Origin: Somniosus microcephalus
Taxonomy: Eukaryota
Direction of reading: 5' to 3'
NCBI GenBank assembly: GCA_052327205.1
Contig: JBMRGM010000035.1
Coordinates: 139,996,001 to 140,040,239 of the forward strand
DNA length: 44,239 bases
Of this stretch, positions 5,295 to 32,370 are shown one piece after another (position 1 is the stretch's first letter; each line of letters begins with the position of its first letter). Both the position numbers and the translations under genes were made by a program. Under the pieces are notes generated by a model. That model was not told where the DNA came from, searched no databases, and saw only the letters and a program-made list of their open reading frames with translations.

Positions 5295-6602
5295 TTGTCT
5301 GTGCTTGGCCGGGCCTGTGGTTGTAAGGATGTAAAGGCCGCCGTGTACACAGAGGAACTTATCCGGGACGCTTTTGTAGCGGGCCACAGATCCAATTACA
5401 CCCGACAGCGACTGTTGGAGCAGAGTAACCTCGACCTCAACAAGGCCTCTGAACTCGCACTATCGTTGGATGCAGCCTACCAGGGCATGGATGCCTACTC
5501 CTCTGCACCGTGGACGCCGCGGGGAATGACAGCCTGGGACACGGTAGGACCGCCTCATAGCGCCGTGCCACCCCAGCCACACCCCAACAACGGCCCAACT
5601 ACCGCAGCAGTGTCCCAAGGCCAGACAGCAGTGCCCCAAGGCCAGAAATGCTACTTCTGTGGCCAGGCAAAACACCCCAGAGCGCGCTGCCCGGCGAAAA
5701 ACGCGATCTGCTCGGGCTGCGGGAAGAAGGGACACTACGCTAGCGTCTGCAGGGCCAAAGCCACCCCGAACCCCAGCAGCGCCGCGTGTGGGCCATGCGG
5801 GCCGCCATCTTGGACCTCCCCGGCCATGTGCGAATCACCGGTACAGCAGCCATTTTGGACGCCTCCAGCCACATGGGGATCATGGACGCCGCCATCTTGG
5901 ACGACAGCCGGGACGCAGCAGGCCCCCGACACCGCCTCATCTGATACCCGCAGCGACACACCGACCCCTACGCTGGCATCCGTTACACTGGACCAAGCGA
6001 GACCGCACCAACTGGCCAGTTCCACAATGGACATTAAGGTAAATGGTCACGATACAATCTGCCTTTTTGACTCTGGGAGCACGGAGAGCTTCATCCACCC
6101 CGACACGGTGCGGCGTTGCTCTCTCCCAGTCCTGCCTGCGCAACAGCGGATTTCTATGGCCTCCGAGTCCCAGTCGGCGGACATCGGCGGCTACTGCGTG
6201 GTGACACTCGTAGTAGACGGGACCGTGTACGATCATTTTAAACTTCTGGTCCTGCCTGACCTCTGCGCTGCCGTCCTGCTGGGGTTAGATTTTCAGTGCC
6301 ACCTTAAAAGTGTTACGATGGCGTACGGTGGACCCCTACCCCCACTCACAGTCCACAGCCAGCAGCTTCCAAATTGCCCGCCGCGCACCAGGTGCAACCT
6401 CTCCACACTCAGAGTCACCCCCCCACCACTGTTTGCTAACCTCACCCCCGACTGTAAGCCCTTCGCCACAAAGAGCAGGCGATACAGTGCCGGGGACAGG
6501 GTTTTCATTAAAACCGAAGTGGAGCGGCTCCTGAAAGAAGGGATTATTGAGGGCAGCACCAGCCCCTGGCGAGCCCAGGTTGTGGTCATTAAGACCGGCG
6601 AG
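5295..6602 (+). CDS. Gypsy A gag-pol, N-terminal part (gag zinc knuckles, aspartic protease, start of RT); 5'-partial
   Basis: CYFCGQAKHPRARC and CSGCGKKGHYASVC knuckles, protease LFDSGS, RT start GIIEGSTSPWRAQVVV. Confidence 0.9.
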
Positions 6603-6750
6603 TGCTTTGTGCATTGAGTGCTGTTGGAGTTTTGCTAAGTGGGAGAAAAATCATTTAAGTGTATTTTGTGAATTTTAGTGTGTTAAGAAGTCAATTATTT
6701 GAAGTAAGTTTAATTTTTTAAGGGTTTTTTAAACTCTTGGGCAGTTTAAA

Positions 6751-6800
6751 CAGGAAGTAGAATCCGGGTATAAAAGGGGAGGGGCTAGTGCAGTGCACGG
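6751..6800 (+). promoter_or_regulatory. Candidate Pol II core promoter in the CR1 5' UTR (ETS site and TATA box)
   Basis: CAGGAAGT at 6751-6758 and TATAAAAG at 6769-6776. The TATA starts 31 nt upstream of the second copy of the 47-nt repeat. Confidence 0.6.
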
Positions 6801-7135
6801 AGTGCTTTGTGCATTGAGTGCTGTTGGAGTTTTGCTAAGTGGGAGAGTTCGGATAAGTGGGAGGTGAGGGTGTGTTTTTTGCTCTGTTTTATTCCCCACT
6901 CCCAGGCTTAGACAGCACTGCAGAGGCGGAGCAGCGAGACGAGTCAACCAAACAGGCTCCACAGACAGTATTCAAGGAGGAGGTTGGTGATCAGCTGGTT
7001 GGTTGGTTTTCTTCCTTCTCTTCTCTTTCATACCTTTAAGTTGGTAATTCCTATTGAATAGTGGTGTGATATTATCATATATATCCGGGCAGGGTCTTCA
7101 TAACTAATAATAAGAAATTTAATTAATTATATAGA

Positions 7136-8089
7136 ATGGAGCAGGTGATGTGTTACTGTTGCGAGATGTGGGAGCCGGTGAACCCCATTGAGGCTAACGG
7201 TGATTACATCTGCGACAAGTGTTTGCTGCTAGAGGAACTCAAGTTCCATGTTATGGAGCTTGAGACTGAGCTTCGGACACTGCGACACATCAGGGAGGGG
7301 GAGAAGTTCCTGGACTCTATGTTTCAGGAGATGGTCACACCTATGAAGTTAATTACTGCAGATGTAGTCCGTGGTCAGGGACAGGACGGTGTGACTACGA
7401 GTGAGGAAGGTACAGGGATCCAGGATGTAGTGTTGAAGGAGACGCAGCCCTTGTTCTTGTCCAGCAGGATCGAGGTTCTTACTCCCTGTGAGGGCGGGAG
7501 CGGGGACTGCAGGGAGGATGAGCAACCTGGCCACAGCACCGTGGTACAGGGGGCCATTCAAGTGGAGGGAGTAAAAAGAAATGTTGTAGTGGTAGGGGAT
7601 AGTATCATTAGGGGGATAGATAGGGTTCTCTGCAGTCAAGAGCGGGAGTCCCGAAGGCTGTGTTGCCTGCCTGGTGCCAGGGTTAAGGACATCTCTTCTG
7701 GGCTGGAAAGAAACTTGCAGTGGGAGGGGGAGGATCCAGTTGTCGTGGTCCATGTTGGTACAAACGACGTAGATAGGACAAGGAAGACGGTTCTGTTAAA
7801 GGAGTATGAGCAGCTAGGGGTCAAATTAAAAAACAGAACCTCAAGGGTAATAATCTCTGGGTTATTACCTGAGCCACGAGCGAATTTGGCTAGGATAAAT
7901 AAAATTAAAGAGTTAAATGCGTGGCTCAAAGACTGGTGTGGGAGAAATGGGTTTTGCTTCTTGGGACACTGGCACCAGTACTGGGACAGGAGGGAGCTGT
8001 TCTGTTGGGACGGACTCCACTTGGCCAGTGCTGGGACTAGAGTCCTGGCGAATCATATAACTAGGGCTGTAGAGAGGGCTTTAAACTAA
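7136..8089 (+). CDS. CR1 ORF1p: Cys4 zinc finger, coiled coil and SGNH/GDSL esterase domain
   Basis: CYCC...CDKC, heptad region LEELKFHVMELETELRTL, SGNH blocks VVVVGDSIIR, PGA, VHVGTND and DGLHL. Confidence 0.93.
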   Translation: MEQVMCYCCEMWEPVNPIEANGDYICDKCLLLEELKFHVMELETELRTLRHIREGEKFLDSMFQEMVTPMKLITADVVRGQGQDGVTTSEEGTGIQDVVLKETQPLFLSSRIEVLTPCEGGSGDCREDEQPGHSTVVQGAIQVEGVKRNVVVVGDSIIRGIDRVLCSQERESRRLCCLPGARVKDISSGLERNLQWEGEDPVVVVHVGTNDVDRTRKTVLLKEYEQLGVKLKNRTSRVIISGLLPEPRANLARINKIKELNAWLKDWCGRNGFCFLGHWHQYWDRRELFCWDGLHLASAGTRVLANHITRAVERALN

Positions 8090-8127: not shown

Positions 8128-11079
8128 ATGACAACAGAGAAGGTCATAGACTTAGGTAGCAGTGGGGGAATTAAAAAACAGAATGTGTCAGGAAGGGACA
8201 GAAGGTATGGAGTAAAAAGTAAAGTAATAAAAAGGGAAAAAACAGGAACTAAGTGTTGCAAAACATATTTGAAAGTTCTTTATCTGAATGCACGTAGCAT
8301 TCGTAACAAAATGAATGAGTTAACGGCACAAATAATGACATATGGGTATGATCTTGTGGCCATTACAGAAACATGGCTGCAGGGTGACCATGACTGGGAA
8401 TTAAACATACCAGGTTATTTAACAATCAGGAAGGACAGGCAGGAAGGGAGAGGAGGTGGGGTGGCTATGTTAATAAAGGAAGGAATCACTATAATACAGA
8501 GAAATGATATTGGGTCAAAGGAGCAGGATAGTGAAACAGTTTGGGTGGAGGTAAGGAGTAATAAGGGGAAAAAAACACTAGTGGGTGTAGTCTATAGGCC
8601 TCCGAACAGTTGCAACTCTGTTGGACGGAGTATTAATCAGGAAATAGTTGAGGCTTGTAATAAGGGAACAGCTATAATTATGGGGGATTTTAATTATCAT
8701 ATTAACTGGACAAATCAAATTGGGCAGAGCAGCCTTGAGGAAGAGTTCATTGAGTGTATTAGGGATGGGTTTCTTGAGCAGTATGTAACTGAACCGACCA
8801 GGGGGCAAGCAACCTTAGATCTGGTCCTGTGTAATGAGACGGGATTAATTAAAAATGTCCTAGTAAAGGATCCCCTTGGAATGAGTGACCATAACATGGT
8901 TGAATTCCATATTCAATTAGAGGGTGAGAAGGTTGGATCTCAAACAAGCATGCTGAGCTTGAATAAAGGAGACTATGAAGGTATGAGAGCGGAATTAATT
9001 AGAGTGGACTGGGAAAATAGGTTAAAGGGTAAGACGGTACATGACCAGTGGTGTACATTTAAGGAGTTATTTTACAACTTCCAAAAAAAATATATTCCAC
9101 TGAGGAAAAAAGGGTGTAAAAGAAAAGATAGCCATCCGTGGCTAAGTAAAGTAATTAAGGATAGTATCCGACTAAAAACAAGGGCATATAAGGTAGCCAA
9201 ATCTAGTGGGAGGATGGAAGATTGGGAAGTCTTTAAAAGACAGCAAAAAATAACAAAAAGATTGATTAAGAAAGGGAAGATAGATTATGAAAGTAAATTA
9301 GCAAAAAATATAAAAACAGACAGTAAAAGTTTCTATAGTTATATAAAAAGAAAAAGGGTGGCTAAAGTAAATGTTGGTCCCTTAGAGGATGAGACCGGGA
9401 AATTAATGGTGGGAAACATGGAGATGGCAAAAACATTGAACAATTATTTTGTATCAGTCTTTACAGTAGAGGACATTAAGAATATCCCAACATTGGACAA
9501 ACAGGGGGCTCTAGGGGGGGAGGAACTAAATACAATTAAAATCACTAAGGAAGTGGTACTTGGTAAAATAATGGGACTCAAGGCGGATAAATCCCCTGGA
9601 CCTGATGGCTTACATCCTAGGGTCTTGAGGGAAGTAGCGGTAGGGATTGTGGATGCATTGGTAATAATTTTCCAAAACTCACTGGACTCAGCAAAGGTCC
9701 CGGCAGATTGGAAAACTGCTAATGTAACACCCTTATTTAAAAAGGGTAGTAGGCAGAAGGCTGGAAACTATAGACCTGTTAGCCTAACATCTGTGGTTGG
9801 TAAAATGTTAGAGTCCATTATTAAGGAGACAGTAACGGGACATTTGGATAAACATAATTTAATAGGGCAAACTCAGCATGGTTTCATGAAGGGGAAGTCA
9901 TGTTTAACAAATTTGCTTGAGTTTTTTGAGGAAGTAACATACAGGGTGGATAAAGGGGAACCAGTGGACGTAGTGTATTTAGACTTCCAAAAGGCATTTG
10001 ACAAGGTGCCACACAAAAGATTATTGCTCAAGATAAAAAATCACGGGATTGGGGGTAATATTCTGGCGTGGGTGGAGGATTGGCTCTCAAACAGAAAGCA
10101 GAGAGTTGGGATAAATGGTTCATTCTCAGATTGGCAACCAGTAACTAGTGGTGTTCCGCAGGGGTCAGTGCTGGGTCCCCAACTCTTTACAATCTATATT
10201 AATGATTTGGAGGAGGGGACCGAGTGTAACATATCAAAGTTTGCAGATGATACAAAGATGGGACGGAAAGTAGTGAGTGAGGAGGACATAAAAAACCTGC
10301 AAAGGGACATAGACAGGCTAAGTAAGTGGGCAGAGATTTGGCAGATGGAATACAATACTGGAAAGTGTGAGGTTATGCACTTTGGCAGGAAAAATCATAG
10401 AGCAAGTTATTATCTTAATGGCAAGAAACTGGAAAGTACTGTAGTACAAAGGGATCTGGGGGTCCTGGTGCACGAAACTCAAAAAGTTAGTATTCAGGTG
10501 CAGCAAGTGATTAAGAAGGCCAATGGAATGTTGGCTTTTATTGCTAGGGGGTTGGAATATAAAAACAGGGAGGTATTGCTGCAGTTGTACAAGGTATTGG
10601 TGAGGCCGCACCTGGAATACTGCATACAGTTTTGGTGTCCATACTTAAGAAAAGACATACTTGCTCTCGAGTCAGTACAAAGAAGGTTCACTCGGTTAAT
10701 CCCGGGGATGAGGGGGTGGTCATATGAGGAGAGGTTGAGTAGATTGGGACTCTACTCATTGGAGTTCAGAAGAATGAGAGGCGATCTTATTGAAACATAT
10801 AAGATTGTGAAGGGGCTTGATCGGGTGGATGCGGTGAGGATGTTCCCAATGATGGGTGAAACTAGAACTAGGGGGCATAATCTTAAAATAAGGGGCTGCT
10901 CATTCAAAACTGAGATGAGGAGAAACTTCTTCACTCAGAGGGTGGTAGATTTGTGGAATTTGCTGCCCCAGAAAGCTGTGGAAGCTACATCATTAAATAA
11001 ATTTAAAACAGAAATAGATAGTTTCCTAGAAGTAAAGGGAATTAAGGGTTACGGGGAGCGGGCAGGAAATTGGACATGA
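8128..11079 (+). CDS. CR1 ORF2p: APE endonuclease and reverse transcriptase
   Basis: APE motifs YLNARS, ITETWL, YRPP, MGDFN, SDHN. RT motifs QHGF, LDFQKAFD, GVPQGSVLGP, FADDT. 983 aa with no stop; the true start codon is uncertain. Confidence 0.96.
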   Translation: MTTEKVIDLGSSGGIKKQNVSGRDRRYGVKSKVIKREKTGTKCCKTYLKVLYLNARSIRNKMNELTAQIMTYGYDLVAITETWLQGDHDWELNIPGYLTIRKDRQEGRGGGVAMLIKEGITIIQRNDIGSKEQDSETVWVEVRSNKGKKTLVGVVYRPPNSCNSVGRSINQEIVEACNKGTAIIMGDFNYHINWTNQIGQSSLEEEFIECIRDGFLEQYVTEPTRGQATLDLVLCNETGLIKNVLVKDPLGMSDHNMVEFHIQLEGEKVGSQTSMLSLNKGDYEGMRAELIRVDWENRLKGKTVHDQWCTFKELFYNFQKKYIPLRKKGCKRKDSHPWLSKVIKDSIRLKTRAYKVAKSSGRMEDWEVFKRQQKITKRLIKKGKIDYESKLAKNIKTDSKSFYSYIKRKRVAKVNVGPLEDETGKLMVGNMEMAKTLNNYFVSVFTVEDIKNIPTLDKQGALGGEELNTIKITKEVVLGKIMGLKADKSPGPDGLHPRVLREVAVGIVDALVIIFQNSLDSAKVPADWKTANVTPLFKKGSRQKAGNYRPVSLTSVVGKMLESIIKETVTGHLDKHNLIGQTQHGFMKGKSCLTNLLEFFEEVTYRVDKGEPVDVVYLDFQKAFDKVPHKRLLLKIKNHGIGGNILAWVEDWLSNRKQRVGINGSFSDWQPVTSGVPQGSVLGPQLFTIYINDLEEGTECNISKFADDTKMGRKVVSEEDIKNLQRDIDRLSKWAEIWQMEYNTGKCEVMHFGRKNHRASYYLNGKKLESTVVQRDLGVLVHETQKVSIQVQQVIKKANGMLAFIARGLEYKNREVLLQLYKVLVRPHLEYCIQFWCPYLRKDILALESVQRRFTRLIPGMRGWSYEERLSRLGLYSLEFRRMRGDLIETYKIVKGLDRVDAVRMFPMMGETRTRGHNLKIRGCSFKTEMRRNFFTQRVVDLWNLLPQKAVEATSLNKFKTEIDSFLEVKGIKGYGERAGNWT

Positions 11080-11521
11080 GTCTAGGTTCGGAATGGTCAT
11101 GGCCCTGTGGGTAGTGGAGTGGGCCCAGGGGCCGTGTAGCCTTGTTCTGCTCCTACTGTGTTCTAATTCTGTTAGATTTCAGGAGATGGTTTTATTCCTG
11201 TTCCTGGCTGGGGTGGAGATCGCCTTTACAGAAGGTAAGTACTGTAGAAAATATAGGGACAGAGTGATCTCCTGGAAGAATTTCGATCGCCTAGATGGGT
11301 CGGAGAGGAATTTCCCAGATTTTTTTCTCCCAAATTGGCCATTGGGTCTTTATCTGGTTTTTTGCCTCTCCCGGGAGATCACATGGGTTCGGGTGGATGC
11401 AGAGTGATAGAAGATTTGAGGTTAGGATCAGATCAGCCATGATCTTATTGAATGGTGGAGCAGGCTCGAGGGGCCGATTGGCCTACTCCTGCTCCTATTT
11501 CTTATGTTCTTATGTTCTTAT

Positions 11522-13729
11522 GAGAAGCAGCGCCTGGTCATCGACTACAGCCAGACAATAAATCGCTACACCCTGCTGGACGCCTACCCACTCCCCCGTA
11601 TAGCTGATATGGTCAACCAGATTGCGCAGTACCGCGTCTTCTCGACCATTGACCTGAAATCAGCATACCACCAGCTCCCCATCCGCCCTGAGGACCGCCA
11701 GTACACTGCCTTTGAGGCAAACGGCCGCCTCTATCACTTCCTTAGGGTTCCCTTTGGCGTCACCAACGGGGTCTCCATCTTCCAAAGGGAGATGGACCGG
11801 ATGGTAGATCAAAATGCGTTGCAGGCCACTTTCCCATATCTGGACAATGTGACCATCTGCGGCCGTGACTTGCAGGACCATGACGCAAACCTCGAAAAAT
11901 TCCTCCGCACCGCCCAACTCCTAAACCTGACATATAACAAGGAGAAGTGCATATTCCGCACAAACCGCCTCGCCATCCTTGGCTGTGTTGTGGAACACGG
12001 AGTCATCGGCCCCGACCCCGACCGGATGCGTCCCCTTATGGAACTTCCACTGCCCCACTGCCTCAAGGCCCTGAAGAGGTGCCTAGGGTTTTTCTCCTAT
12101 TACGCCCAGTGGGTCCCCTACTATGCGGACAAGGCCCGTCCGCTGATCAAGTCCACCTCTTTTCCCTTGACGGCAGAGGCCCGCTTAGCCTTCCACCGTA
12201 TCAAGGAGGACATTGCCAAAGCCACCATGCACGCAGTGGACGAATCCATCCCCTTCCAGGTGGAAAGCGACGCGTCCGACTTTGCCCTGGCCGCTACCCT
12301 CAATCAGGCGGGGAGACCCGTGGCCTTCTTTTCACGAACCCTCCAAGGCCCGGAGACCAGACACTCCGCTGTTGAGAAGGAGGCCCAGGCGATTGTGGAG
12401 GCTGTGCGTCATTGGAGGCACTACCTGGCCGGAAAACGATTTACCCTGCTCACTGGCCAGCGTTCACTTGCTTTTATGTTTAACAACAAGCAGAGGGGCA
12501 AAATCAAAAATGACAAGATCTTGAGGTGGAGAATCGAACTTTCCACCTACAACTACGAGATCTTGTACCGGCCCGGGAAGCTAAATGAACCCCCGGATGC
12601 GCTATCGCGTGGCACCTGCGCCAGCGCGCAGATCGATAGACTACGGGTCCTCCACAATGACCTCTGCCACCCGGGGGTCACCAGGTTCTTCCACCTCATC
12701 AAGGCCCGCAACCTGCCTTACTCTATTGAGGAGGTCAGGACCATGACCAGGAACTGCCAAGTCTGCGCTGAGTGCAAACCGCACTTTTATAGACCAGACA
12801 GGGCCCACCTGATAAAAGCCACTCGCCCCTTCGAGCGCCTGAGCATTGATTTTAAAGGGCCTCTCCCCTCCTCCGACCGCAATGTGTACTTCCTCAATAT
12901 TATTGATGAGTACTCCCGTTTCCCGTTTGCCTTCCCCTGCCCGGACATGACCAGTGCCACGGTCATTAAATGTCTGAACAACCTCTTCACCCTGTTCGGC
13001 TTCCCCAGCTATATCCATAGCGACCGGGGCTCATCGTTTATGAGCGACGAACTCCGTCAGTACCTGCTAACTAGGGGTATTGCCACAAGCAGGACCACCA
13101 GTTACAACCCCCGGGGGAACGGACAAGTGGAAAGAGAAAATGCGACAGTTTGGAAGGCCGTCCTGCTAGCCTTAAAGTCTAGGGGCCTTCCAACCTCCCG
13201 CTGGCAGGATGTGCTCCCCGATGCGCTCCACTCTATTCGGTCACTGCTCTGCACTGCCACTAACGCCACCCCTCATGAGAAAATGTTCGTCTTCCCAAGG
13301 AAGTCCACATCGGGGACATCGCTACCGCCATGGCTGACGTCCCCAGGGCCGGTCCTACTGAGAAGACACGTGAGGACCCATAAAACGGACCCCCTGGTCG
13401 AGAGGGTCGACCTCCTCCACGCCAACCCCCAGTATGCTTACATCGCATACCCGGACGGGCGGGAGGACACAGTCTCCATAAGAGACCTTGCACCCTCGGG
13501 GACCGCAGTAACCCACTACCCACTATCACCCCCCCCCACGATCCGATATCCAGCCCCAGCAGACGGCAGGCCTGGGCCCCGCGACCCGCTCGACATCTAC
13601 GAGGACGACACGCCTGTGCCACAGCCTACGCTGGACTCGACGCCGGAAGCTTCACTACCCCTGCCGTCGCCACGCCGATCACAGCGGCAGACAAGACCTC
13701 CGGAGAGACTCCAATACACTAACTTTTAA
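11522..13729 (+). CDS. Gypsy A pol, C-terminal part (RT, RNase H, integrase)
   Basis: RT IDLKSAYHQ, PFG, YLDN. RNase H SDAS and EKEA. Integrase H-x4-H...C-x2-C, IDFKG, SDRG, NGQVER. The track's start at 11504 lies in the CR1 tail. Confidence 0.93.
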   Translation, partial: EKQRLVIDYSQTINRYTLLDAYPLPRIADMVNQIAQYRVFSTIDLKSAYHQLPIRPEDRQYTAFEANGRLYHFLRVPFGVTNGVSIFQREMDRMVDQNALQATFPYLDNVTICGRDLQDHDANLEKFLRTAQLLNLTYNKEKCIFRTNRLAILGCVVEHGVIGPDPDRMRPLMELPLPHCLKALKRCLGFFSYYAQWVPYYADKARPLIKSTSFPLTAEARLAFHRIKEDIAKATMHAVDESIPFQVESDASDFALAATLNQAGRPVAFFSRTLQGPETRHSAVEKEAQAIVEAVRHWRHYLAGKRFTLLTGQRSLAFMFNNKQRGKIKNDKILRWRIELSTYNYEILYRPGKLNEPPDALSRGTCASAQIDRLRVLHNDLCHPGVTRFFHLIKARNLPYSIEEVRTMTRNCQVCAECKPHFYRPDRAHLIKATRPFERLSIDFKGPLPSSDRNVYFLNIIDEYSRFPFAFPCPDMTSATVIKCLNNLFTLFGFPSYIHSDRGSSFMSDELRQYLLTRGIATSRTTSYNPRGNGQVERENATVWKAVLLALKSRGLPTSRWQDVLPDALHSIRSLLCTATNATPHEKMFVFPRKSTSGTSLPPWLTSPGPVLLRRHVRTHKTDPLVERVDLLHANPQYAYIAYPDGREDTVSIRDLAPSGTAVTHYPLSPPPTIRYPAPADGRPGPRDPLDIYEDDTPVPQPTLDSTPEASLPLPSPRRSQRQTRPPERLQYTNF

Positions 13730-15684: not shown

Positions 15685-18441
15685 TTATAAGTTCAGTCTT
15701 TGAGGAGGCTTCCTGATTCTGTCTGGATAACGTCTCTTTGGGGTATCAGGTTCTTCTGGCAATGTTGAGTCGGGATCAATGTCGTTGTTTGGTTCATCTG
15801 CTTCCAATATCACCGGTTCTGCGGTAGCTGCAATTGGAACGTCGACTTCATCACCAGGTGTATCAGATCGTGGTGTGGAGTTGACATTTTCCCGTGACTC
15901 TAGAATCTGGCCAGCATGGCGTCTTACAATGCTCTCCCCAACGTCCACGGTATACATGAGAGGTCCTTGTCGTGTACAAATCGTTCCTGGCTGCCATTTC
16001 TCAGTGCGGTAGTCCCGGGCCAAAACTGGTTGACCTATCTTAAAACTCCTGGTCGGCCTTTCATTCATATTCTGAAACTGCCTGTTCTCTACATCTCTTC
16101 GGACGTTTGGCTTAACCAAATCCAAGCGGCATCGTAGTCTTCGATTGAAGAACATCATGGCTGGAGTTTGGTTGGTAACCGCATGCGTCGCATTCCGGTA
16201 GGCAAACAAGAAGTTGTCCACGTTGTGTTGTAGGGGTATGTCTTCATTACACATTGCCTTGATAGCCTTCTTGAATGTTTGGACAAACCTCTCGGCCAAT
16301 CCATTAGTGGCTGGATGATATGGGGCAGATGTGTAATGCTTAACACCATTGTTCTTTAAGAACCTCCGGAACTCTTCAGACACAAACTGTGGTCCATTGT
16401 CAGAGCAAATCTGTTCAGGCAGCCCATTCCTGGCGAATATGGTTCGTAAAACTGTGATAGTTTTTTCCGTGGTGGTTGAGGACATTTTTATTACCTCTGG
16501 CCACTTTGAATGTGCATCCACCGCAATTAAAAACATCGAGTCCATGGAGGGACCAGCAAAATCAATGTGCACCCTTTGCCATGGAGATGAGGGCCACTCC
16601 CATGGATGCAGAGGAGCTTGTGGTGGGGCGTTTTGGACCTTCTGGCATCCTGCACAGCTCTTGGTCATCTCTTCGATTTCTCTATCGATTCCCGGCCACC
16701 ACACAAACGCTCTGGCTAAGTTCTTCATTTTTACCCCACCCAGATAACCCTCATGAAGCTCATTGAGCACTCTATCCGTCAACTTAGGTGGAATTACTAC
16801 TCTGGATCCACACATCAAGGTTCCTCTGCACACTGACAGCTGTTCTCTTCTCGGCGAGAATGCTGGCCGCAGTGGTTCGCCATGTGCTGGCCATCCCTTC
16901 ACCGTTAAATCATAGACCCGTGATAGTGTCGGGTCATTCCGTGTTTCGTTTTCTATGTTTGCATTCGTCATAGGGAGACATTCGACTATGGTCGAGTGGA
17001 ATAACTCCATTGGATCCACTGCAAGGTCTTCTTCTTCCACCATCGGCAACGGTAGGCATGACAATCTATCAGCATTTCCATGCTGTTTAGTTCCTTTGTA
17101 CTCGATGTCATATTGGTGTGCCCCTAGGAAAAGGGACCATCTCTGCAGCCGTTGTGCTGTCATTATCGGTACGCCCTTCTGAGGGTTGAAAATGGAGACA
17201 AGAGGTTGATGATCGGTTAGTAGAGTACATTTTTGACCGTGCAGGTAGTGATTGAACTTCTTCACCCCCCACACTAGGTTGAGGGCCTCTCTGTCAATCT
17301 GGGCGTAGTTACGCTCGGCAGAAGTTAACGAGCGTGACGCAAAAGCTATCGGCCTCTCTAAACCATCAAGGAATTTATGTGACAGTACCGCCCCAATGCC
17401 GTAGGGAGACGCATCACACGCCAGTCTGATCGGCAGTGCTGGGTTGTAGTGAGCCAATACTTCCCTTGAAGTGATTAAGTCCTTACTCTTCTGAAAAGCA
17501 CGCTTACAATCATCGCTCCATTTCCATGCTACCCCCGTTCGTAGCAGGGCATTCAGTGGGTGCAGAATTGTCGACAAATTCGGCAAAAACTTATGATAGT
17601 AATTCACCAATCCGAGGAATGACCTCAGTTGCGACACATTTTCAGGCGCTGGGGCCTTAACAACCGCTTCAATTTTCTCAGGGGACTTATGTAACCCGTC
17701 TTCATCAATCACGTGGCCACAATACGATATCTGTTTCTTAAAAAATTCGCACTTTGGGTGGTTGGCTCGCAGCCCATGTTCCCGTAGTCTAGTGAGCACC
17801 TGTTCTAGGTTGTTAAGGTGTTCACTGTCATCTTCACCTGTCACAAGGATGTCGTCCAAGTAACACTGAGTCCCCGGAATCCCTTGCAGGACTTGTTCCA
17901 TCGCTCTTTGCCATATCGCCGGAGCCGATGCTACTCCGAATACCAATCGATGATACTGGTAAAGACCTTTGTGAGTTTTTATCGTGAGATACTTCCTAGA
18001 GGACTCTTCAACCTCCATCTGCAAATATGCTTGTGCTAGGTCAATTTTTGTAAAACGCTTCCCTCCAGACAGTGAGACGAAGATGTCTTCTACCCTTGGA
18101 AGAGGATATTGTACTGTGTGAAGGACTGGGTTCACCGTCACCTTGAAATCCCCACAGATGCGAATCTTCCTTGGCTCCCCAGACTTATTGCTTAACGTTT
18201 TCTTCATGACAGGAACGATGGGTGTCGCCCACTCGCTCCAGTCGACCTTAGACAACACGCCCGCCTTCTCCAGATTCTCCAGCTCTGCCTCGACGGCTGG
18301 GCGAATTGCATATGGTACCGGTCTTGCTTTGAAAAACTTGGGAACTGCGTTCTCTTCTATTTTTATCGAGGCGGTTACGCCTTTAAGCGTGCCCAGTTCT
18401 TGTTGAAATACCTCTTTGGCGTTAGCTAAGATTGTTGACAA
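15685..18441 (-). pseudogene. Gypsy B pol (RT, RNase H, integrase), in frame with gag-PR but behind a TGA
   Basis: RICGDFK, IDLAQAYLQ, YLDD, CDAS, TDHQPL, HIDFAG, SDNG, NGLAER. Several conserved motifs look eroded (HEGYLG, NADRLSCLP). Confidence 0.88.
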
Positions 18442-19641
18442 TCATCCAGGAGTGACGTCTTCATCTTTTTCACCGTCCACCGTCATTGCATGAATGGAGT
18501 GCCAATCTAAGTTTATCTTTCTGATCCATTCCCATCCCAATAACGGTGGTCCACCATTTGGCAGTATGTAGAGATACAATTTCCGTATTTTCTTGCCATT
18601 GTATTCGACAGGCACCCTTATTTTTCCTCTGGGGTATACTTTTTGCCCCGTATACGTCATCAAGACGATGGATGTCTCTCTCAAGGGTATGTGTGAAAAT
18701 AGCCACTCGTAGTCTCGTCGATTCATGATGGTTAGCGCTGATCCTGTATCCAATTCCATTTTAACTTGGGACCCTGCTATCGTGAGGGTGACCCAAATGG
18801 TTCGGTGATCCTCTTTTGCGATTACATTGTGAAGTTTGAGACAGCTTAGTCTCCTGTTCCCGGATTCACTATCGCTCATCTGGTCTTCGGAACTACTGTC
18901 CATCATCTTTTGTACTTTCTTGTACGGTTCCTTAGTAGCCTTTTTGTTGTCGCTGGTCTTCTTCCCAGACCTGCAAACTCGTGCAATGTGTCCCATCTTC
19001 CCGCATTGCCTGCATATTTTGTCTTTGGACCAGCAGTCCTTCTGGTCATGGTTAGTTCTGCTGCAGCGATAACATTTTGCAAATCCCCGTGTCATTTTGT
19101 GGGTGCCGTATTCCTGTGGTTTTTGTTGAATTTCTGCAGCTCCCCTGGCTGCTGCTTCATACGATACTGCCACGCTGAAAGCCTTGTCTAGCGTCAGCTC
19201 TTTCTCTGAGAGTAACTTCTTCTGTGTTCCTTCACTCAGTCCACAGACAAATTTGTCCCGTAGGGTATCTGCCAGTCCTGCTCCGAACTGGCAGTGCTTT
19301 GATAGCTTGCGTAGTTCCGTAAGATACTCAGCATTGCTCTCATCTTTGTGCTGAGTTCTCCTGTGGAATTTAAATCTTTCTGCTATCAACAGCGGTGCAG
19401 GGTTTAGGTGTTCCTGTAGGACAGCAACAATTTCGTTAAAACTCTTCGCCTTCGGTTTGGCTGGAGTAATCAGGTCCCGCAATAGGCCGTACGTTCTAGC
19501 GCCCATTAAGTTTAGCAATATCGATGCCTTTTTCTCCTCCGCTATTTCGTTTGCCTCGAAATATACCTCGACTCTTTCCACATACGTGGTCCAGTCCTCT
19601 ATTGTATTATCAAAAGCAGTGATACAGCCAGTCTTCGGCAT
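18442..19641 (-). CDS. Gypsy B gag and protease
   Basis: DWTTYVER, LRDKFVCGL, CCHC knuckles CYRCSRTNHDQKDC and CRQCGKMGHIARVC, protease MELDTGS. Confidence 0.9.
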   Translation of the reverse strand: MPKTGCITAFDNTIEDWTTYVERVEVYFEANEIAEEKKASILLNLMGARTYGLLRDLITPAKPKAKSFNEIVAVLQEHLNPAPLLIAERFKFHRRTQHKDESNAEYLTELRKLSKHCQFGAGLADTLRDKFVCGLSEGTQKKLLSEKELTLDKAFSVAVSYEAAARGAAEIQQKPQEYGTHKMTRGFAKCYRCSRTNHDQKDCWSKDKICRQCGKMGHIARVCRSGKKTSDNKKATKEPYKKVQKMMDSSSEDQMSDSESGNRRLSCLKLHNVIAKEDHRTIWVTLTIAGSQVKMELDTGSALTIMNRRDYEWLFSHIPLRETSIVLMTYTGQKVYPRGKIRVPVEYNGKKIRKLYLYILPNGGPPLLGWEWIRKINLDWHSIHAMTVDGEKDEDVTPG

Positions 19642-20170
19642 CTTGCAAATCTAAAATGGCGCCTCCCGCGCTTTGCCTTCTTGTTAGCGCTGCTTTCCAC
19701 GGTTTCTTGCGTGTTTAATATTTTTTTTAAAATTATTTTCCCGTCGTGGAACAACCCTGTGGGACTCTTGCCTCCCTCTTCGCGGGTCTATTCGCAGCCC
19801 GGCTTCGTAGCACCGGCCGCGCCCTGTGTGCTCCACCCTCTCTCTCTCTTCTTCCCGACAACGCTGCTCGGCCCCGTTGCAAACCACCCGCTCGAGTTCG
19901 CGACCGCCGCAGCCCAGGAAGGATCAGAGCACTACCTGCCACCAGCCCGATTAGCTGAAGCACCGTCGACAGGAACCAGGCCCCGCATCCAACAGCTTCT
20001 CCAGCAATCTTCAACTCTGCAACACAGGGCGGATGCCCACGGTCGACGCCCGTTTCTACTGCCTCTTACTGTCTTTTCTTTCTGGCCTCGACCTCTGCTC
20101 ACTTCGCTGTAGGAATGGATCCCAGGAGGTGGTGCAGACTGTAGGTAGGTTCGTAGCTGCTCGTCGCCAG

Positions 20171-30360: not shown

Positions 30361-30712
30361 AAAACACAATTCTCTTGTGTCTGTAAAACCATGAGAGAAA
30401 AGTCCCCACCAGGGTTCTGGGCTGACCACACCCCTTTAAGATTTGTTAAACATCTACAGGGAGTATTTCAACGTCATTTTCGATGGGAATTTTAAAGCTT
30501 TCTTTTCACGGGCTCGCTCAGATAACCACTGAATGTTTCAATCCTCTCAGTTGAATTTTGATGCCCAGAGTCAACAGTATCAGGAAGCAGAATGTGACGA
30601 TAAAGCCAAACCCTGACAAGTTACTCCAGTTAATTCCCTGAAAATGTTGGGTTAACTCATAGCCAGTTGGTAGCAAAGACATTTAACCCATCAGTTTGAC
30701 CCAAGATTGATA

Positions 30713-32370
30713 CCCAGTCCCAGAGTGGGAAAGGACAGTGTCTGACCCACTGCACCACCCAGTCCCAGAGGGGGAAAGGACAGTGTCTGACCCACTGCGC
30801 CACCCAGTCCCAGAGGGGGAAAGGACAGTGTCTGACCCACTGCACCACCCAGTCCCAGAGGGTGAAAGGGCAGTGTCTGACCCACTGCACCACCCAGTCC
30901 CAGAGGGGGAAAGGACAGTGTCTGACCCACTGCACCACCCAGTCCCAGAGGGGGAAAGGACAGTGTCTGACCCACTGCACCACCCAGTCCCAGAGAGGGA
31001 AAGGACAGTGTCTGATCCACTGCACCACCCAGTCCCAGAGGGGGAAAGGACAGTGTCTGACCCACTGCGCCACCCAGTCCCAGAGGGGGAAAGGACAGTG
31101 TCTGACCCACTGCGCCACCCAGTCCCAGAGGGGGAAAGGACAGTGTCTGACCCACTGCACCACCCAGTCCCAGAGGGGGAAAGGACAGTGTCTGACCCAC
31201 TGCGCCACCCAGTCCCAGAGGGGGAAAGGACAGTGTCTGACCCACTGCACCACCCAGTCCCAGAGGGGGAAAAGACAGTGTCTGACCCACCGCACTGCCC
31301 AGTCCCAGAGGGGGAAAGGTCAGTGTCTGACCCACCGCACCGCCCAGTCCCAGAGGGGGAAAGGACAGTGTCTGACCCACCGCACTGCCCAGTCCCAGAG
31401 GGGGAAAGGTCAGTGTCTGACCCACTGCACCGCCCAGTCCCAGAGGGGGAAAGGACAGTGTCTGACCCACCGCACTGCCCAGTCCCAGAAGGGGAAAGGA
31501 CAGTGTCTGACCCACCGCAGCGCCCAGTCCCAGAGGCGGAAAGGACAGTGTCCGACCCACTGCACCGCCCAGTCCCAGAGGCGGAAAGGACAGTGTCTGA
31601 CACAATGCACCGCCCAGTCCCAGAGGCGGAAAGGACAGTGTCTGACCCACCGCAGCGCCCAGTCCCAGAGGGGAAAGGACAGTGTCTGACCCAGTCCCAG
31701 AGGGGGAAAGGACAGAGTCTGACCCACTGCACCACCCTGTCCCAGAGGGGGAAAGGACAGAGTCTGACCCACCGCACCACCCAGTCCCAGAGGCGGAAAG
31801 GACAGTGTCTGACCCACTGCACCACCCAGTCCCAGAGGGGGAAAGGACAGTATCTGACCCACCGCACCGCCCAGTCCCAGAGGGGGAAAGGACAGTGTCT
31901 GACCCACCGCACCGCCCAGTCCCAGAGGGGGAAAGGACAGTGTCTGACCCACTGCACCACCCAGTCCCAGAGGGGGAAAGGACAGTGTCTGACCCACCGC
32001 ACTGCCCAGTCCCAGAGGGGGAAAGGACAGTGTCTGACCCACCGCACCGCCCAGTCCCAGAGGGGGAAAGGACAGTGTCTGAACCAGTGCACCACCCAGT
32101 CCCAGAGGGGAAAGGACAGTGTCTGACCCAGTCCCAGAGGGGGAAAGGACAGTGTCTGACCCACCGCAGCGCCCAGTCCCAGAGGGGAAAGGACAGTGTC
32201 TGACCCACCGCAGCGCCCAGTCCCAGAGGCGGAAAGGACAGAGTCTGACCCACTGCACCACCCAGTCCCAGAGGGGAAAGGACAGTGTCTGACCCACTGC
32301 ACCACCCTGTCCCAGAGGGGGAAAGGACAGAGTCTGACCCACCGCACCGCCCAGTCCCAGAGGGGGAAAG
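30713..32370 (-). repeat. 45-bp minisatellite, array 1 (roughly 37 units)
   Basis: Unit CCCAGTCCCAGAGGGGGAAAGGACAGTGTCTGACCCACTGCACCA; gives 15-aa periodic ORFs. Confidence 0.97.

Follow-up and report, generated by a model that had tools for sequence, protein, structure and literature searches.

LINEs are expected to need internal promoters. A CR1-type element in the window (the whole stretch of 44,239 nucleotides of Somniosus microcephalus DNA analysed here) opens with a 47-nt sequence that recurs just below a TATA box, which raises the question of whether such an element can run on a promoter that its own transcripts leave behind, and by what route the lost promoter returns. The preliminary description proposed a self-regenerating promoter, with modules lost in each cycle and regained by strand transfer of cDNA; the loss is upheld below, but not the regain by that route, change at the DNA level having been seen instead.

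Anatomy of the element and its insertion site

The 47-mer at 6600-6646 is repeated at 6800-6846 with all bases identical and a spacing of exactly 200 nt, as the preliminary description had stated, and the window has two occurrences of its leading 22 nt versus 0.00 expected (100 shuffles). The TATA box is likewise where it had been placed: TATAAAA starts at 6769 and AGGAAGT at 6752, and position 6800 is 31 nt past T6769. The repeat had also been read as a bracket around an ETS and TATA module; the module does lie between the two copies, but they are no stand-alone bracket, 6600-6799 being a single 200-bp monomer (present up to 11 times elsewhere) and both 47-mers being monomer fronts.

From its 5' end the element, on the plus strand throughout, comprises a terminal R segment (6600-6646, the 47-nt front of the distal 200-bp monomer, of which 6600-6602 doubles as target sequence), which would be the remnant of a start inside the parent's array; the remainder of that monomer (6647-6799), an AT-rich spacer and promoter core that form the sole TATA module of this copy; a proximal R segment (6800-6846), which is a partial monomer fused to the unique 5' UTR; and that UTR, or tether (6847-7135), which across 267 nt is 85% identical to its counterpart in family D (described below). 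The core contains an ETS-like AGGAAGT (6752-6758; CCGGAAGT at the ETS site in family D), the TATA box TATAAAA (6769-6775; TTTAAAAA in family D, a weak, non-canonical TATA) and, directly after it, a G-rich, GC-box-like stretch (6776-6784), motif names that denote candidate sites only. A candidate start site at 6798-6803, deduced from phased 5' ends, includes the pyrimidine-purine step C6798-G6799 at TATA+30. The proximal R and tether (6800-6920) fold as a long hairpin (z -1.95, 10/200 shuffles as good).

ORF1 (7136-8089) is intact and joins a zinc-finger-like N-terminus with CxxC pairs to an SGNH/GDSL esterase domain (PF13472, 4.6e-10; PDB 4c1b, 7e-29), as in the CR1/L2 group; ORF2 (8128-11079), also intact, encodes an APE endonuclease and a non-LTR reverse transcriptase (PF03372, PF14529 and PF00078), and the 3' UTR (11080-11522) closes with a tail of an 8-nt repeat (11501-11522). 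An ORF1 esterase, an APE-RT ORF2, a short repeat tail and a short or absent target duplication are features of the CR1-clade LINEs of birds, turtles and cartilaginous fishes. The best named matches of ORF2 are bird and turtle reverse transcriptases (~50%), which we take to be CR1, and ray and shark proteins (66-70%), none of them labelled CR1; the element is filed here as CR1 from these matches and its anatomy rather than from a tree of named references. An inverted repeat (11264-11279 with 11367-11382) lies in the ~420 nt of 3' UTR at 11080-11500.

The insertion lies within the pol frame of a Gypsy-type LTR retrotransposon, also on the plus strand, which it splits into a gag-protease part (5307-6599) and an RT-RNase H-integrase part (11525-13729). 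RNA reads of uninterrupted copies of this host (224 and 96 reads in two RNA-seq runs, not cap-selected and matched to the organism by label only) match the window up to 6602, and the same three bases stand after the tail at 11522-11524, as a 3-nt target duplication or a microhomology; the 5' end of the element is therefore placed only to 6600-6603. That the element begins at the 47-mer, as first described, is thus settled only to within 3 nt. Junction matches of at least 4 nt occur in 27 of 72 cases, versus ~9 in shuffled pairs, and exceed 5 nt in only three; since the target duplications are short, mapped 5' ends may include a few bases of microhomology. In one RNA-seq run, the CR1 reads at 6604-7830 are mostly opposite in orientation to those of the flanking Gypsy frame, which suggests mainly antisense CR1 RNA in that sample. 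A further Gypsy-type element, from a different family and with gag and pol frames that are both long, occupies 15685-19650 of the window on the minus strand; one 45-bp minisatellite forms two arrays (30712-32370, 37.5 copies; 41170-42300, 25 copies).

Tandem monomers and the phase of 5' ends

A search of the element's own 6.4-Gb genome found, upstream of other copies, series of matches spaced 200 nt apart. A 28-mer at the junction of array and unique UTR has 791 exact matches, by which the duplication is family-wide, as had been foreseen, and a TATA-proximal 23-mer has 1822. Copies of the window's family (family A), which is young, carry from 0 to 11 tandem 5' monomers followed by the unique tether, in agreement with the earlier prediction of 0, 1, 2 or more 200-bp monomers. 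The family A monomer is CpG-poor (2 CpG in 200 nt) and is not a CpG island. A one-off duplication or an assembly error in the window copy can be dismissed with near certainty: hundreds of copies share the duplication, and reads support the monomer-to-monomer joint.

5' ends were mapped by anchored alignment in the first 100 listed of the 791 junction matches (contigs C1 and C2), chosen regardless of upstream sequence, from which 4 duplicates were dropped; the 30 best matches to 6600-6950, a query-biased set, were kept out of the statistics. In 62 of the 96 independent copies the end falls at TATA+26 to +45, a span of one tenth of the monomer (p 3e-38), as it does in 54 of the 84 arrays longer than 60 nt, and 51/96 end at TATA+28 to +38. 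The 5' ends do pile up, as predicted, in phase below the TATA box, but with a spread of ~20 nt and only 7/96 at precisely the base where the 47-mer begins. The longest family A arrays, picked by genome search, have 11 monomers, and the same end phase is found in 7/8 long arrays. All eight copies that end at monomer position 4 (L042, L054, L073, L078, L116, L121, L122 and L123) have an A directly before the end, which may reflect either a variant at position 3 or the addition of a base.

The 62 phased copies keep zero to eight modules in 8, 35, 7, 5, 3, 1, 1, 1 and 1 cases, respectively. Ends at the proximal start account for 8 of the 93 copies that reach it, versus 35/64 at the next start (p 2e-10) and 19/59 at starts from the third onwards (p 4e-4 against the proximal start), with a roughly constant stop rate of ~0.3 per further monomer. 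Three readings bear on the rarity of zero-module copies and on the one-module mode: the proximal start may be weak, having no monomer sequence downstream; arrays may collapse to the one-module state, in which only 47 nt of homology are left; or module-less cDNAs may be rescued by a jump. If arrays collapse to one module, a trend with age is expected. Monomer number and copy age are not correlated in family A (rho -0.02, p 0.89, 43 copies), and one-module copies are not significantly commoner among old copies (11/17) than among younger ones (10/26; p ~0.1). Genome-wide, the upstream junctions per copy number 1.35 (303/225) in the older type versus 1.58 (728/460) in the younger, a weak difference (z 1.8), and in the older family D one module is found in 9/10 phased copies.

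The flanks of sampled family A copies held other CR1-like elements bearing 5' arrays. Families B, C and D were found with searches by unique UTR, of which the best matches were read, a procedure biased towards young copies though neutral as to 5' structure. In family B (ORF1 37-39% identical) the monomers measure 68-80 bp and contain TATAAAAA; among 30 of 40 listed matches read, from which 6 duplicates were dropped, 17/24 distinct insertions end at TATA+26 to +45 when ends are scored per monomer type (p 2e-5). The monomer of family C (ORF1 41%) is 125 bp long, and 12/26 ends (30 of 40 listed matches read, of which 4 ran off the locus) fall in the span from +26 to +45 of a TATA or TATA-like sequence (p 3e-4); a further 6/26 fall where the start motif recurs inside the monomer, and 69-nt deletions in copies L175, L190 and L197 amount to a 56-bp short monomer. 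Family D, an older sister of family A, has a 198-bp monomer identical to that of the window in 154 of 202 aligned columns, and 10/20 copies end in phase (p 8e-6; 20 of the 40 best matches). Between A and D the block from ETS to TATA (6743-6779) is identical at 35 of 37 nt, versus 119/163 elsewhere (p 0.004). The one-module mode is absent from families B and C in the samples read, which have broad distributions instead. At least four CR1 families, with three unrelated monomer types, coexist in this genome, and the TATA-phased array design appears to be common to several related CR1 families and not the quirk of one.

CR1 families nest in or abut one another's 5' regions (L052/L143, L091 and L116); a family B copy lies antisense inside the proximal R of a family A copy, and a family A copy is inserted at the ORF1 start of a family D copy. 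The upstream flank of L091 (1482-1774, oriented) pairs a family D UTR with an array of another kind (3.9 units, each 74-77 bp), likely a promoter swap on the same tether; an array of this type is absent from the 20 family D loci read. One multiplied family B insertion (L144-L148 and L161) ends just before a TATA box, not below it, and the length of its array is variable in the manner of a VNTR.

Probable transcription starts and the turnover of modules

A fixed spacing of ~30 nt between TATA box and start is as expected of an upstream core promoter. The phased 5' ends are very probably transcription start sites, and the starts would depend on the TATA box; because the TATA-to-end distance is fixed at ~30 nt in unrelated monomers, our reading is that every monomer drives a start in the one after it. 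In the model preferred here, the ETS-TATA-GC core at the end of a monomer would start Pol II transcription ~30 nt downstream, at the front of the next monomer; the transcript would be without the module that fired, and a full-length daughter would begin with the 47-nt R and be short of its parent by one module or more. The copy in the window would be a daughter of this kind, with one module left, whereas donors with long arrays would hand on multi-monomer arrays via RNA. Modules would be regained, lost and homogenised mainly at the DNA level, by unequal exchange or slippage between the monomers of inserted copies. The part of the model in which an upstream monomer drives the start in the next, one module being lost per cycle, is well supported by the phase of the ends in the four families and by the conservation of the ETS-to-TATA block, and the earlier proposal that the parent had an upstream monomer is supported. 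The whole model, a promoter of arrayed TATA monomers turned over mainly at the DNA level, is favoured with moderate confidence, and it has a weak point: loss of one module per cycle does not by itself explain 8/93 ends at the proximal start versus 35/64 at the next. Multi-monomer RNA exists, as shown by the 7 and 10 reads in the two RNA-seq runs that extend across a boundary between monomers; neither a pile-up nor a depth step was found at 6799-6800 in these runs, which are not cap-selected.

The promoter may instead be internal, as that of mouse L1 monomers is, with an initiator and downstream elements located in R and the AT-rich part that follows it, and the TATA match may be secondary; a one-module copy would then reproduce itself without an upstream TATA. 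Such a promoter would directly explain the one-module mode and the rarity of ends at the proximal start, where R is followed by the tether, and it is favoured by the 9/10 phased family D copies that have one module and a non-canonical TATA, as well as by the six family C ends at the second copy of the start motif. These six ends, however, also fit the 56-bp short monomer of L175, L190 and L197, the most conserved block is upstream of the start and not downstream, and the distance from TATA to end is common to families A, B and C despite unrelated downstream sequences; we consider an internal promoter distinctly unlikely. Some non-LTR elements have 5' ribozymes, and the phased ends, which scatter over ~20 nt, might be points of structure-set RNA cleavage or stops of reverse transcription. 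Little credence is given to this explanation: an Rfam search of 6550-7200 found no family near threshold (best 18 bits versus 45), R and spacer fold worse than shuffles (z +1.3), and the equal TATA distance recurs in unrelated monomers.

How the modules come back is a separate matter from how they fire. Array copy number changes at the DNA level after insertion, as duplicates of single insertions show: L139 and L140, which agree at 100% of 1734 nt of flank and have 2 differences in the body, are a single insertion with 6.25 and 2.25 monomers, respectively, and, be they paralogues or haplotypes, no retrotransposition lies between them; six duplicates of one family B insertion (contig C39, flanks 97-100%) have 8, 10, 8, 7, 9 and 9 units. 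Among the four duplicate sets in family A, monomer number differs in only one and is the same in the other three. The duplicates reveal the change without its direction and stop short of proving a net DNA-level gain of modules. Block variants occur in 11 of the 17 arrays of four or more modules, in 7/17 at non-CpG sites and in some as higher-order repeats; the block pattern is absent from the other 6/17, two of which are 11 perfect monomers, and these also fit amplification at insertion. Among 208 non-CpG variant calls, 77 are in all units of a copy, 112 in one unit and 19 partial, and a 3-nt deletion is in all four units of L049; the arrays are homogenised, subfamily variants usually filling every unit of a copy. 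Position-specific variants are common to sibling copies (L099/L136 and L077/L095), and these, with the block variants, imply that long arrays pass down through RNA, being reshuffled step by step, and are not rebuilt every time from one-module RNA. DNA-level exchange is probably the main source of new modules.

Modules may alternatively be regained mainly in reverse transcription, a cDNA that ends in R annealing to an R farther inside, whether on the same RNA or on a different one, and being extended from there, so that module-less RNAs would be rescued to one module. This could account for the zero-module deficit (8/93 at the proximal start versus 19/59 at the third and later starts), for the roughly constant stop rate per further monomer, for the six long arrays without block variants, including the two of 11 perfect monomers, and for arrays that do not grow with age; L076 carries an R variant in its upstream R copies and not in the proximal one, as a jump predicts. 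Template switching by LINE reverse transcriptase is, moreover, invoked for monomer regain in 10.1101/2022.08.06.500894. Nevertheless we find it doubtful, given that monomer number differs among duplicates of one insertion, for which reverse transcription is not needed, that the added units of L044 carry the proximal R allele and L137 has a variant in the terminal R only, both opposite to a full-length jump, that the block and higher-order patterns in 7/17 long arrays would not come from repeated jumps on one-module RNA, that the breakpoint interval spans the start site in only one of the three placeable old/new chimeras (L031, L034 and L065), few as the informative sites are, and that families B and C have no one-module mode. 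The R repeat is not found at both RNA ends, as it would be in an LTR element; the window has two copies, both of them 5'. It is improbable that these CR1s, losing an external TATA promoter with each transcript, regain it by strand transfer of reverse transcriptase through the 47-nt R, and the return of modules via the DNA level is more likely than via strand transfer. If true, strand transfer would give a LINE with a programmed, LTR-like jump confined to its 5' end, in several families of one lineage, and would explain both the rare module-less copies and the one-module mode.

Comparison with known systems

Several CR1 families thus appear to run on ordinary upstream TATA promoters that are stacked, a convergent solution in another clade. 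These elements also spread thousands of TATA modules across the genome, in arrays whose length varies. The sharp register (TATA+30), the hundreds of young, intact copies and the duplicated insertions make DNA-level exchange and template switching by reverse transcriptase separable. No description of tandem TATA monomer promoters on CR1 was found in a literature search of titles and the starts of abstracts, with Repbase, Dfam, most subscription journals and supplements outside its scope.

The A-module of the Dictyostelium element TRE5-A occurs in tandem. It is likewise 200 bp long, sits at the 5' end of a non-LTR element and has promoter activity (PMC3159450), but TRE5-A is an L1-type element of an amoeba, and TATA-phased ends are not seen for it in the available part of that source. 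The pseudo-LTRs of Penelope-like elements and the R redundancy of LTRs resemble the arrangement in that an upstream partial copy provides a terminal redundancy with a start site (PMC8557442); the Penelope-like repeat is the element's own 3' end, however, whereas the CR1 repeat here is of the 5' UTR only, without a 3' copy.

Mouse L1 (L1Md A, Tf and Gf), like family A, has ~200-bp tandem monomers and a tether, with 5' ends that cluster at one place in the outermost monomer. It belongs to a different clade, the element here being a CR1 with an esterase ORF1 and an 8-nt tail; its ends lie near a YY1 site, whereas the CR1 ends are phased to an upstream TATA box, and its young monomers are CpG islands, whereas the family A monomer is CpG-poor. 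The word TATA is absent from the main text of PMC6454616 on mouse L1, in which the replenishment of the arrays is called unclear and 5' arrays are called a special feature of mouse L1. Tandem motifs are described in other mammalian L1 UTRs (PMC5381506), older mouse L1 subfamilies have fewer monomers (10.1101/2021.12.03.471143), and the text of 10.1101/2022.08.06.500894 mentions promoter capture by chicken CR1 and daughters of mouse L1 with fewer monomers than their donors. The same text puts forward unequal crossing over, replication slippage, second-strand mispairing and intra- or intermolecular template switching by reverse transcriptase as routes of regain. DNA-level and reverse-transcription routes have therefore both been proposed in print for mouse L1 monomers, and strand transfer, which is spelled out there for these monomers (10.1101/2022.08.06.500894), is not new as a hypothesis. 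The array architecture of these shark elements appears to be that of mouse L1 monomers, and what seems to be new here is the clade, the CpG-poor monomer and the phasing to a TATA box in several families.
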